In this document: piece after piece, positions 6,750 to 35,854 of the stretch
Position numbering within the stretch: position 1 is the stretch's first letter
Layout: each line of letters begins with the position of its first letter
DNA from: an uncultured Alphaproteobacteria bacterium
GTDB taxonomy: Bacteria; Pseudomonadota; Alphaproteobacteria; Geminicoccales; Geminicoccaceae
Reading direction: 5' to 3'
DNA length: 64,000 nucleotides
NCBI GenBank assembly: GCA_963752325.1
Contig: CAVVXU010000004.1
Location: 50,559 to 114,558, forward strand
Notes under the pieces: generated by a model
Database searches by the model: none
What the model was told of the DNA's origin: nothing
The model's input: the letters and a program-made list of their open reading frames with translations, nothing else
Position numbers and translations under genes: made by a program

Positions 6750-6837
6750 GGAGGGATGGCCGAGTGGTTTAAGGCGCACGCCTGGAAAGCGTGTTGGGGG
6801 CAACTCCTCGCGGGTTCAAATCCCGCTCCCTCCGCCA
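6750..6837 (+). tRNA. tRNA-Ser(GGA): tRNA-Ser (anticodon GGA)
   Basis: Acceptor stem GGAGGGA/TCCCTCC, D-arm GCCGAGTGGTTTAAGGC, anticodon loop CU-GGA-AA, long variable arm, T-arm GCGGGTTCAAATCCCGC, discriminator G and an encoded CCA. Confidence 0.95.
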
Positions 6838-7044
6838 ATTAATTGCAGAAATGCTTTAGATTTCAGTAGCTTACATACGCATGACCTCACCGATTGCCAC
6901 TTTAGCTACCACAGCAGGGTTCGGTCATGGGCGCACTTGAGCAGACACGTGTGGCTATCCGACGGCCCTCATAGCTGGAGCGCCGAGACTGGAGTGCCCC
7001 CGCTTGGGTGGACACCGCGTTCACTTTCGCGCAAGGAGTCGCCC

Positions 7045-7152
7045 ATGCCCAGAACACGCCCTCCTTATGCGCCGGAATTCCGGCGGCGGATGGTCGAGCT
7101 GGTCCGCGCCGGACGTGATCCGGCGGATCTGGCCCGCGAGTTCGAAGCATGA
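7045..7152 (+). pseudogene. IS3-family OrfA (HTH) N-terminal fragment
   Basis: MPRTRPPYAPEFRRRMVELVRAGRDPADLAREFEA* matches the usual IS3/IS911-type OrfA start. It terminates after 35 aa. Degenerate OrfA-like sequence (..TVAEREELIR..) is visible in other frames up to about 7330. Confidence 0.6.
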
Positions 7153-7546
7153 TCCGTAGCAGGCGGGTCATCCGACCTGCGCAGTAGCGGCGGTCAGCAG
7201 GCCGCCGAGGGGGGCCCAGGGCGATCCGGCACTCGGTTGCCGGGGCTGACCGGCAGGAAGGCCGCCGGCAGCCCAGGCCGGTCGACCCGGCACTGACGGT
7301 TGCCGAACGCGAGGAGCTCATCCGCGAGATCGCCACGGCCGAGCGGGCTCTGGCGGCCTTGGACGGCAACCGGTGCGACAGTTATCAGAAGGCGCTGGGC
7401 ATGTTCAATGAGGAGACGCGCGAGGTGTGGGCGCCGGAGGCGGTCGACCCGGACGAGCCCGAGGAAGGCGGCTATGAGCGTGATGCCGACGGCCTGCGGG
7501 AGTTCCTTGGAAGAGAGATGCGAGTCACTACGCCATTCGCTCGATG

Positions 7547-7723
7547 ATGCCAACCCTGGTCGCCACCCGCCACAACCCCAAGATCAAAGCCTTCTACCAG
7601 CGCCTCGTCGCCGCCGGAAAACCCAAGAAGCTCGCGCTCACCGCCGCCATGCGCAAGCTCCTCGTCATCCTCAACGCCATGCTCAGGAGCAACACCCCGT
7701 GGATGCCGGCTCAGACAGCTTGA
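7547..7723 (+). pseudogene. IS110-family transposase C-terminal fragment
   Basis: [52 protein letters not shown]... is the conserved C-terminal tail of IS110-family transposases. No catalytic N-terminal part lies upstream. Confidence 0.65.
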
Positions 7724-7796
7724 CACGTCAAGACAGTCGCTGACTCCCGCTGGAGCTTCGAGGTTGTGCTCAAGCGCATACGGGAGCGCCAGTCCA

Positions 7797-33226: not shown

Positions 33227-33310
33227 AGCCTGCCGGCCGAAGCCTTGACGCCCTGGAGATCAGGCGGGTATCTCTGATACCGGTCTCAGGAGAGGTGACA
33301 GATCGGCGGG

Positions 33311-33660
33311 GTGCTCAGCGAGGACGCCAAGGCGTTCTACCGGCGCGAAGGCTACTACTTCCCGCTCACGGCAATGCCGCGGAACGAGGCCACCCGCTAC
33401 CGGGGCGCGCTGGAAGACTGGGAGCAGCGCAACGCGACGGGCCTGCCGTCGGAGAAGCTGTTGCGCTCCAAGGCGCATCTCATGTCCACGGCTCTCTTCG
33501 AACTCGTCCATCGGGAGAGCGTCCTCGATGCCGTCGAGGACATCCTGAGGCCCGACATCCTGCGCTGGGCCTCGGGCGTGTTCCTGAAGGAGGCAGGGGA
33601 TCCCGCCTTCATCGCTTGGCATCAGGACGGGATGTACTGGGGCCTCGACAGGCCGGACAT
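33311..33660 (+). pseudogene. phytanoyl-CoA dioxygenase (PhyH) family gene, 3'-truncated by the IS3 element
   Basis: MLSEDAKAFYRREGYYFPL...DPAFIAWHQDGMYWGLDRPD is a PhyH N-terminal half with the start of the HxD motif. Similarity stops exactly at the IS3 inverted repeat (33661). Confidence 0.7.
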
Positions 33661-34846
33661 TGGAGTGGGCCCCTGGTGCCGGACGCGATCAGGCGGCGTC
33701 TTTGACCGGCGGCCGGGCGTGCTGCTTCTCGTACTGTTCGGGGCTCAGGTAGCCAAGCGATGAGTGGAGGCGCCTGGCGTTGTACTTCTGAATGAAGGCC
33801 GGCAGCTGTTCCGCGACGTCCTCGTCGGTTTCAAATTCGGGCGGGTAGACGGCTTCGACCTTTAGTGTCTTTATCAGGCTTTCCATCATCGCGTTGTCAT
33901 AGGGATTGCCACGCCGCCCCATTGATCGCAGAGTGATCAATCCGATTCCGCGGGGACTGGCGCCAGCAGGCGCCAGAGGGAGCCCACGAGTTGGGCGTCG
34001 GCGAGACGGTCTCGGTATCTCCGGGCAGCGTATTGCGAGCCGCGATCGGAATGATGCAGGCAACCTTCGGGCGGCTGGCGATGCACGATGGTGGCATCGA
34101 GCGCCGCCAGCGTCAGGCGCGCATCGATCCGCCGGCCGATGGCGTAGCCGACGATGCGCTGCGACCAGGCGTCCATGATCAGGGCAACGTAGACAAACCC
34201 CGCGACGATGGCGACGTCGGTCAAGTCGGCGACCCACAATTGGTTCGGGCCGTCGACGACGAGCTCGTCTCGTCGGTGGGGAAAGATCAGCAGGTCGTGG
34301 TCGCTGTCGGTCGTGGCGACGAACCGCCGGCGTCGTGGTGGGTGAGGCTGTGCTCGCGCATCAGCCGCTTCAGCTTCTTGTGGCTCACGACCCAGCCCTG
34401 CTGACGGAGCGCCGCCCGCATCAGCCGGCGTCCTTCGGCGATGGACATGCCATGGGCGCCCGCTTCTCGGCCGCCGTCCTTGCCGCACGGCCCCCTTTAG
34501 AAACTCGAGCTCGAGCGCCTGCTTGCCGACGAGCCGCTCAAGCGCAGCGATCCGCGCTTCGTACTCCTGGATCAGGTCGGCCACCTGCGTGTCCTCGTCG
34601 AAGGCGCCAGCCTCGTACTTCTCGACCCATGCAAGGCAACGCCTTGCATCGGATCAGGGTCCGCGACAGATCGTGCCTCTTCGCCAGATCGTGCAGCGTC
34701 TCGCCGGCCAGGAACTCCTGAACGACCTGACGCTTGAACGCGACGCTGTGGGTTCTGTGTCTCGCCATGGCTTTCATCCTTCGAAAGCCCGGCTACCTGG
34801 TCAATTCCAATCCACCGCGATCGTCCGGCTCAAGGGGCCCACTCCA
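33661..34846 (-). mobile_element. IS3-family insertion sequence, transposase genes degenerate
   Basis: Terminal inverted repeats TGGAGTGGGCCCCT... (33661-) and ...AGGGGCCCACTCCA (-34846) match in 23 of the first 25 positions. OrfA (MARHRTHSVAFKRQVVQEFLAGETLHDLAKRHDLSRTLIR / WVEKYEAGAFDEDTQVADLIQEYEARIAALERLVGKQALELEFLKGA) and OrfB (..FVATTDSDHDL..DGPNQLWVADLT..HSDRGSQY..GNPYDNAMMESL..LHSSLGYLSPEQYE) are spread over at least 3 frames, with an internal deletion. Confidence 0.85.
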
Positions 34847-35682
34847 CAGCGGCGGTCAGTGGGACACGATGCTCGCGCCCAGCGTTGATCCGTTCGGCGG
34901 GAACGGTCCAGATGCGAGCGGACGAATCAAATTCGCCCCAAAGGATGCTCCGTACCCCACCGGAGCGCGCTGCAGTCAGGATGGCGAACCCAAGGGCACG
35001 GGCCGAAGTGCCGTCGCGCCCCAGCAAGCCCTAGAGAACCCCGGTGCCTCGCGCCAGTCGAGCGCGGCATGATGCTTCACAGCCCGGACCTTGGAGGGCT
35101 GAGGCAGAAGGTGATCGAGATGACCACGCCAGCGCGCCGGGTTCTCACCCGTGCGAGCCTTGGTTGCCGCGGCGTAGTTGAGCGCCGCCTCGATGCGCTG
35201 GCGGACTCGGCTCGCCGTCTCCGGCTTCGTCGTCCGAATTGGCCGCAGCACGGCGAGCACGGCCTCGGTATCCACCGCAGCCACGTCGGTCCGGCCCAGC
35301 GATGGATAGGCGTAGGCGGCCAGGGTGGAACTCCACTGCGCAGCGTGCTTCTCGTTGCGCCAATCCACCCGCTTGCTCTCGATCAGCGCCTCGGCCATCT
35401 CCTTGAAGGTGAGCGTCTGCTGCTGGTGCCGCTGCGGTCGAGGATCCACGCCATCGGCCCCGCGCGCCCTTGATTCCAGGGCCTTCTCCCGAGCTCGCGC
35501 GAGGCTCACAGCAGGCCAGCCGCCGAGCCCAATATCCAGTCGCCGGCCACGATGGACAATGCGCAGTACCCACGACCGCGCGCCCGAGCCCTTCACCAAA
35601 AGCTGAAGTCCCATCACGCCGCCGCGGCCACTGTCCAGGTGCCGCCCAGGGGGGCGGTCTCCACCCTACGGGCGCTCAGCAT
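34847..35682 (-). pseudogene. P4-type tyrosine integrase, frameshifted and 3'-truncated
   Basis: ATG35682 reads MLSARRVETAP, shifts frame in a G6 run (35649-35654), then reads PGRHLDSGRGGVMGLQLLVKGSGARSWVLRIVHRGRRLDIGLGGWPAVSLARAREKA... (ORF 34976-35617). It shifts frame again into ..GFAILTAARSGGVRSILWGEFD...INAGREHRVPLT. It ends at the IS3 repeat, before the HxxR and Tyr catalytic motifs. Confidence 0.75.
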
Positions 35683-35840
35683 TTGTCGGCTACCACATTC
35701 GTTACCACGCAGCGATGTGGATTCCCGCAAACGGCACCGGACGTCAATGCCCCGGTATGAATGTCAAGATTATGATAACATTACATAAAATGGCTATCGG
35801 CGAATTTCTACGAACGTAGGCGAACGCACAGCTCGGCGGA

Positions 35841-35854
35841 CGCTCCCTCCGCCA
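35841..35854 (+). repeat. 14-bp direct repeat of the tRNA-Ser 3' end (candidate att site)
   Basis: CGCTCCCTCCGCCA at 35841-35854 is identical to 6824-6837, the last 14 nt of tRNA-Ser including CCA, in the same orientation. It lies 159 bp from the integrase start. An AT-rich stretch lies between them. Confidence 0.55.

Follow-up and report, generated by a model that had tools for sequence, protein, structure and literature searches.

The tRNA-Ser(GGA) gene and its displaced 3' end

Downstream of lepA, the window analysed here, a stretch of 64,000 nucleotides (nt) from an uncultured bacterium of the Geminicoccaceae (contig CAVVXU010000004.1), carries an intact tRNA-Ser(GGA) gene. Its 3'-terminal 14 nt, CGCTCCCTCCGCCA, are found exactly twice in the window, both times on the plus strand: at the tRNA end itself and about 29 kb to its right, next to the remnant of a P4-type tyrosine integrase gene (Table 1; all positions are those of the window). 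The interval 6838-35840 is most probably one integrative genomic island, which would have been inserted into the 3' end of the tRNA gene by the P4-type integrase. An earlier note, made from the letters of the window, had proposed a tRNA-Ser-anchored island of ~29 kb with a direct repeat of the tRNA 3' end. The proposal is supported by the architecture of related elements, by paired arm motifs at both ends and by a sister contig that diverges from the window exactly after the CCA of the tRNA.

A chance recurrence of the 14-mer is unlikely, as the note had held: no exact copy occurred in any of 100 dinucleotide-preserving shuffles of the window. Near-matches with two mismatches are at chance level (5 found vs. 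2.9 expected in the window). At the right-hand attachment site (attR), the tRNA-derived block is part of a perfect 6-bp inverted repeat with a 7-nt spacer between the halves. The repeat adjoins the integrase remnant, as had been claimed, with 158 nt between it and the ATG. The AT-rich stretches described at the junctions are real, with 39.7% GC at 6838-6900 and 39.4% GC at 35750-35820 against a background of ~68%. The Islander database catalogues tRNA-integrated genomic islands by a tRNA gene, an oriented 3' fragment and an internal integrase (PMC4383910). All three are present here, with the tRNA gene at the boundary, the 3' fragment in the same orientation and the integrase between them as a pseudogene only. 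The class of putatively active islands, which have an intact integrase and two intact att sites, does not include this one: the att sites look intact, and the integrase is without HxxR and Tyr.

Arm-type sites at both ends

Lambda/P4-type integrases are heterobivalent, binding arm sites through the N-terminal domain and the core through the central and catalytic domains. In the tRNA-proximal arm (P arm), TGCCAC-N6-TACCAC is found at 6895-6912 (+), 58-75 nt from the tRNA end. In the integrase-proximal arm (P' arm), TACCAC-N6-TACCAC is found at 35691-35708 (+ strand), next to the integrase start. The joint pattern TRCCAC-N6-TACCAC has only these two matches on either strand of the window, one inside each end, with 0.01 expected, an estimate that is optimistic since the pattern was defined after both sites had been seen. 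The position and orientation of the sites are as predicted from three complete elements (L185, L193 and L241). Just upstream of its integrase gene, L185 has two copies of GATTGATGGGA 12 bp apart, L193 has two copies of (A/G)TTGA(G/T)GGGA, and L241 has a single copy of GGATGTTGGGAAA. Each element carries its own motif again, in the same orientation, 45-75 nt inside the tRNA-proximal end. The arm sites are element-specific, being ~10-nt pairs in L185 and L193 and one ~13-nt site in L241.

Read on the integrase strand, the P' arm of the window runs from TCCGCC through TTCGCC/TTCGTA/TTCGCC repeats (~10-bp spacing) and an AT-rich stretch to the paired sites and the ATG. The same layout is seen in 17 relatives with an intact tRNA-Ser upstream of the integrase gene and in relatives with an inverted tRNA fragment at that place. 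The intervals 6838-6989 and 35683-35840 are taken as the two putative arms of one attP.

The integrase remnant and its truncation

The remnant corresponds to residues 4-280 of an intact 403-aa homologue (P0126) and is 60-68% identical to homologues of ~400 aa that have all three domains. Pfam identifies the N-terminal arm-binding domain (Arm-DNA-bind_3, E = 2.5e-14) and the core-binding domain (Phage_int_M, E = 1.7e-29). The catalytic domain is incomplete: all that remains of it is TAARSG, the first Arg box, and the segment AGREHRVPL. A tblastn search with intact homologues found no match in the window for residues 281-403, which hold HxxR and Tyr. Two frameshifts interrupt the reading frame, one ~10 codons after the ATG and before both domains, the other after the domains. 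Both are also present in a second assembly (contig L081, described below). Because both lie in runs of G and obvious indel errors occur elsewhere in the assembly of the window, the frameshifts may be assembly errors and cannot be relied on as a sign of decay. The truncation, common to both assemblies, is structural.

At the truncated end lies an IS3-family insertion sequence (IS), flanked by two truncated genes: a PhyH-like fragment and the integrase. Since this IS3 element stands between the two gene fragments, an IS-associated deletion must have taken ~120 residues from the C-terminus of the integrase, HxxR and Tyr among them, along with whatever adjoined it. Successive deletions or rearrangements have taken place at this element. 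The earlier note had read both the frameshifts and the missing catalytic part as integrase decay; the second part of that reading stands, and the decisive lesion is the IS3-associated truncation. Its view that loss of the catalytic part fixed the element in place agrees with the failure to find HxxR or Tyr in the window. The island would be fixed unless a compatible integrase acts in trans.

Position of the integrase in related elements

The integrase lies at the end distal to the intact tRNA, which had been regarded as an oddity. The comparison with integrase relatives, covering 160 loci (80 metagenomic and 80 from IMG/VR) of which 100 could be classified, gives a different picture. In 78 of the 100, the DNA 140-300 bp upstream of the integrase gene includes an inverted TGGCGG, with which the reverse complement of the tRNA-Ser 3' end begins; the other 22 have an intact tRNA directly upstream (tRNA-Ser in 21, tRNA-Asp in one). 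The pattern TGGCGGA-N7-TCCGCC is present in most of the 35 inverted-fragment relatives displayed. The closest relative (L085, 65% identity) has its inverted fragment at -172, the same offset as in the window. Twenty metagenomic relatives have an intact tRNA-Ser (TGA, CGA, GGA or GCT) on the same strand, ~140-275 bp upstream of the integrase gene in the 17 that were measured. The complete elements L185, L193 and L241, all IMG/VR contigs and all of ~10 kb, have the integrase at one end and, at the far end and on the other strand, an intact tRNA-Ser, with an inverted tRNA fragment of 14, 14 and 15 nt, respectively, 156-276 bp upstream of the integrase gene. As 78 of 100 relatives and all three complete elements have a tRNA-distal integrase, the geometry, repeat length and spacing in the window are the norm of the clade.

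L193 (1-9809, from IMG/VR) is a complete element of 9.8 kb with the 14-nt repeat and tRNA-Ser(GGA) at its bounds. Its genes besides the integrase are those for a large terminase, a major capsid protein, a prohead protease, a head-tail connector and a portal only, and it resembles a capsid-forming phage satellite.

Three explanations of the geometry were rejected. Tandem accretion, suggested earlier, would fit a third copy of the repeat, and an exact search of the window found none in the island; the geometry is also the family norm. An inversion between IS copies finds no long repeated IS copies in the window and meets the same family norm. An integrase-mediated inversion or a wrong-way integration specific to this element was dropped, the inverted fragment being the majority arrangement.

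The minority polarity, with a tRNA-proximal integrase, appears in several separate places of a rough neighbour-joining tree of the integrases that has no support values, and both polarities share the layout of the integrase-proximal arm and, it appears, a perfectly symmetric core, GGCGGA-N7-TCCGCC; complete elements were seen for the majority polarity only. It is conceivable, though we rather doubt it, that the 7-nt spacer of this core alone sets the direction of entry, and that polarity has flipped repeatedly. If true, the element in the window would represent the majority polarity in a decayed state, and the matched, element-specific arm sites would form a system for studying the co-evolution of arm and core specificity. 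A tRNA-distal integrase in this clade should not be taken as a sign of rearrangement.

Cargo of the island

According to Pfam, the interior of the island holds accessory-type genes and IS elements only. The cargo forms two blocks and is essentially as listed in the earlier note: three ABC importers, two sulfatases, a lactonase, an aldolase and dehydrogenases. Its count of five IS elements or fragments was too high, four being confirmed (two of IS3, one of IS110 and one of IS1595; Table 1). Two of its four regulators, of the GntR and LacI types, are confirmed and the other two are not. NCBIfam gave family-level matches only, all under the curated cut-offs and without specific enzyme names. The cargo probably serves to take up and break down sugars, sugar acids or sulfated carbohydrates.

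Genes that define other classes of element are missing from the open reading frames (ORFs) called in 6838-35840. No Pfam family of a relaxase, type IV secretion or an excisionase is found there, as would be expected of an integrative and conjugative element (ICE), nor are phage structural, packaging or replication genes, as would be expected of a prophage or satellite. No recombinase besides the integrase remnant was found in the island. An ORF at 7188-7544 (+), between the IS3 and IS110 fragments, encodes 119 aa with a good coding signal and has no Pfam match. The 726-bp gap between the second CUT1-type importer and the LacI gene (31430-32160) contains no convincing ORF and has no plasmid match. 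Exact-protein look-ups of the LepA of the window and of the 2-hydroxyacid dehydrogenase of the cargo returned no record.

Table 1. Features of the tRNA-Ser(GGA) locus and of the predicted island, in window coordinates
Feature	Position	Strand	Basis or remark
lepA ORF as called, 552 aa	start 4670		affected 5' end 4532-4700
tRNA-Ser(GGA), intact, 88 nt, predicted integration target	6750-6837	+	ARAGORN
attL identity block, CGCTCCCTCCGCCA	6824-6837	+	exact repeat; L084 similarity stops right after 6837
Putative tRNA-proximal att arm (P arm)	6838-6989	+	AT-rich start 6838-6900; motif search and complete relatives
IS3-family 5' fragment (terminal repeat and orfA N-terminus)	6990-7150	+	blastn to annotated IS3 transposases; translation
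IS110-family transposase C-terminal fragment	~7484-7720	+	blastn to IS110 transposases; translation; no Pfam match
Cargo block 1	7797-23212		
Orphan solute-binding protein	7797-9494		Pfam
2-hydroxyacid dehydrogenase	9616-10608		Pfam
HpcH-type aldolase	10623-11387		Pfam
Ribose-type ABC importer	11423-15413		Pfam
SGL lactonase	15585-16457		Pfam
CUT1-type ABC importer	16528-19749		Pfam
Two sulfatases	20050-21681, 21764-23212		Pfam
IS1595-family transposase, two ORFs (zinc ribbon; DDE)	23422-24400	-	Pfam DDE_Tnp_IS1595, Zn_ribbon_IS1595
Cargo block 2	24541-33763		
Polysaccharide deacetylase	24541-25455		Pfam
GntR/FCD regulator	25718-26533		Pfam
SDR	26644-27414		Pfam
Alpha/beta hydrolase	27462-28214		Pfam
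CUT1-type ABC importer	28220-31429		Pfam
LacI regulator	32156-33217		Pfam
PhyH-like gene, truncated	33311-33763	+	Pfam
IS3-family element, ~1.2 kb, broken reading frame	~33660-34860	-	Pfam rve, rve_2, rve_3; blastn to IS3 transposases; translation
P4-type (arm-binding) tyrosine integrase remnant	34845-35688	-	ATG at 35682; Pfam and homologue alignment
Putative integrase-proximal att arm (P' arm)	35683-35840	+	layout match to relatives; motif search
attR core GGCGGA CGCTCCC TCCGCC A	35835-35854	+	14-nt tRNA-derived block 35841-35854, chromosomal DNA beyond
Right flank, CATTCCGGAACAAAGCCGCG			joins right of attR; expected beside the tRNA at an empty site
Predicted excision junction attB			tRNA end + CATTCCGG
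Predicted excision junction attP			GGCGGACGCTCCCTCCGCCAATTAATTGC

Variation of the locus among relatives

Two ENA contigs of the sample ERZ25039495 match the two ends of the island. The first (contig_86968, here L084) is 97.9% identical to the window from 4454 to the tRNA end only. The 102-aa gene between lepA and the tRNA gene is identical on it, as is the tRNA gene through the CCA, and the divergence begins at the first base after the CCA. The second (contig_22813, here L081) is 98.75% identical from 46579 down to ~34600, a match that spans attR, the integrase remnant (both frameshifts included) and ~250 bp of IS3 sequence. Past ~34600, it carries an MR_MLE fragment, MalK, a solute-binding protein, permeases and an MR_MLE-epimerase fusion, unrelated to the window. 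On L081, the IS3 element itself breaks off at ~34612, where the C-terminal end of an MR_MLE-type gene is fused to it.

The first gene outside attR (35999-36583, -) encodes a protein that is 100% identical on L081. It is an orphan without a Pfam domain, and 5.8 billion proteins include only three homologues of it (100%, 62% and 58% identity). The one at 62% stands in an unrelated, non-syntenic context and gives no information on an empty site. Farther right, beyond the PFOR/hydrogenase region, a tRNA-Leu(TAA) gene lies at 54893-54977 (+).

LepA homologues at 85-93% identity are from Geminicoccaceae. The gene list of a JGI contig with a LepA of 93% identity (P0004) has the same order of an NAD_binding_2 gene, lepA and the 102-aa gene, and shows downstream fragments of a DUF6538 integrase (60 aa) and of an IS3 element, and cargo unlike that of the window. 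A metagenome-assembled genome (MAG) of Ferrovibrio (L001) has a Tn7-like transposon (TniQ, TnsA, Mu-type TnsB, TniB/TnsC) at 5399-10480, after a syntenic lepA-tRNA-Ser(GGA) pair. In the genome collection, the synteny of lepA and tRNA-Ser(GGA) is seen in at least three relatives, with LepA identity of at most 74% among the matches listed. The same tRNA is followed by alternative content on L084, on the JGI contig and in the Ferrovibrio MAG. The site appears to be a hot spot with strain-specific content, and the break falls precisely at the point expected of site-specific integration. At least three kinds of mobile element occur at lepA-tRNA-Ser(GGA): the P4-type island, the DUF6538-type remnant and, in a more distant relative, the Tn7-like transposon.

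Proposed history and alternative explanations

The circular form of the island would have carried an attP with the symmetric core GGCGGA-CGCTCCC-TCCGCCA between two arms with paired arm-type sites. By analogy with lambda/P4-type integrases, the arms would have been bound by the N-terminal domain of the integrase, and the half-sites of the core by its central and catalytic domains. Exchange of strands inside the 14-nt block common to element and tRNA would have restored the 3' end of the tRNA gene. This would leave the tRNA complete at the left junction and 14 nt of it beside the integrase at the right junction. Later, the IS3 element and an adjacent deletion took the integrase C-terminus and whatever adjoined it, and three further IS elements or fragments, together with strain-specific rearrangements, reshaped the interior. 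To excise, the island would require an intact integrase and, probably, a directionality factor as well. Since neither is present, it is now a fixed, non-autonomous block.

Several observations weigh against this explanation. Taken as a whole, the island does not stand out from its surroundings in composition: GC is 66.7% inside and 68.5% outside, the GC at third codon positions (GC3) of the genes is 0.876 inside and 0.869 outside (p = 0.41), and the tetranucleotide correlations inside and outside overlap. Only the att arms are AT-rich. The exact junction pattern of an empty site, with the tRNA end joined to the right flank, had no match in metagenome contigs. Around lepA, synteny is lacking in three LepA relatives at 85-86% identity (P0032, P0027 and P0006). 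With its residual indels, the window has the look of a long-read metagenome assembly prone to errors, and the chance estimate for the arm motif, as said above, is optimistic. In ERZ25039495, the tRNA and the attR-integrase remnant are on different contigs, and the DNA beside each is unlike that of the window. Both sister junctions have different neighbours, and therefore the present 29 kb cannot all be original cargo.

There is a real chance, if one well short of even, that attL and attR are the genuine ends of an old element and that most of the 29 kb was brought in or exchanged later by IS rearrangement and homologous recombination. What the sister contigs have in common with the window is confined to the outermost parts, and their genes inside are unrelated. 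Four IS elements or fragments lie within the island, with truncated genes on both sides of the second IS3 element, and the composition of the cargo equals that of the host. The complete integrase relatives are ~10 kb, and the one examined (L193) has phage head genes and no metabolic genes. However, cargo from a related Geminicoccaceae donor would be just as likely to have a host-like composition, the cargo genes were not found elsewhere in any sister or relative, and two contig ends cannot show which strain is rearranged. Such a secondary mosaic is a refinement of the island explanation and does not contradict it.

An assembly artefact, in which two unlinked regions were joined at the tRNA or at an IS element, is very improbable. 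The window does contain indel errors typical of long-read metagenome assemblies. In lepA, a 1-nt insertion (GAACTC, vs. GACTC in relatives, a GANTC motif) cuts off the first 46 codons, and uxuA (190-1105) is split into two ORFs. The LepA calls of two other Geminicoccaceae MAGs (P0032 and P0039) are also 552 aa. These defects look like a systematic long-read basecalling error, possibly at methylated GANTC, and not like biology. The placement of the two junctions of ERZ25039495 on different contigs with different neighbours would also suit a mis-join. However, a random mis-join would not give the same paired arm motif at both ends with the orientation and positions of complete elements, nor the direct orientation of the repeat that an island requires, and the left flank order of NAD_binding_2, lepA and the 102-aa gene is found on the independent JGI contig as well.

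The idea that the 14-mer at 35841 is a chance copy in an IS-rich variable stretch with an unrelated integrase fragment is already effectively refuted and has next to no probability left: CGCTCCCTCCGCCA is GC-rich and C-rich like the genome and its two-mismatch near-matches occur at chance frequency, but no shuffle gave an exact copy, the copy lies at -172 from the integrase exactly as in L085 and within the 140-300 bp of other relatives, and it is embedded in the conserved GGCGGA-N7-TCCGCC core of the family.

The insertion of one island into tRNA-Ser(GGA), which we prefer to these alternatives, allows attL, attR, the integrase pseudogene and the att arms to be annotated with confidence. The call made earlier from sequence only was right to the nucleotide at both junctions. 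The analysis documents a variable locus in the Geminicoccaceae, a poorly studied and under-sampled family, and in one of its lineages a fixed block for sugar and sulfate-ester utilisation. The current understanding of genomic islands is unchanged by it.

Comparison with known systems

The region resembles the islands of the Islander type in having an intact tRNA at one end, a direct 3' fragment at the other and an internal integrase beside one att site, and in a predicted crossover in the T-stem/acceptor junction region of the tRNA. The same likeness extends to VPI-2 of Vibrio cholerae, which is reported to be an island at a serine tRNA with a sialic acid catabolism cluster, so that accessory catabolic cargo is common to both (PMC3014918). 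The island in the window differs from this type in its integrase, which is without the catalytic C-terminus, leaving the element non-autonomous, and lies at the tRNA-distal end. It also differs in its uncultured Geminicoccaceae host and in having no compositional signature. In classical enterobacterial P4-type islands, the integrase lies beside the tRNA.

The nearest complete relatives of the integrase are those of L185, L193 and L241, which belong to the same clade (~50% identity). These elements share with the island a tRNA-Ser target (GGA in L185 and L193), a repeat of 14-15 nt, the polarity with a tRNA-distal integrase and the arm layout, in which each arm has its sites (a pair in L185 and L193, one in L241). 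However, they are ~10 kb long, and L193 has head genes, whereas the island measures 29 kb and contains metabolic cargo and IS elements but no phage gene. With ICEclc and the Mesorhizobium symbiosis islands, it shares a P4-family integrase, a tRNA 3'-end target and metabolic cargo. In contrast to them, it is far smaller, and its ORFs include no relaxase, type IV secretion or excisionase gene. By its gene content and junctions, the element in the window is classed as a standard tRNA-anchored genomic island, and not as an ICE or a prophage.

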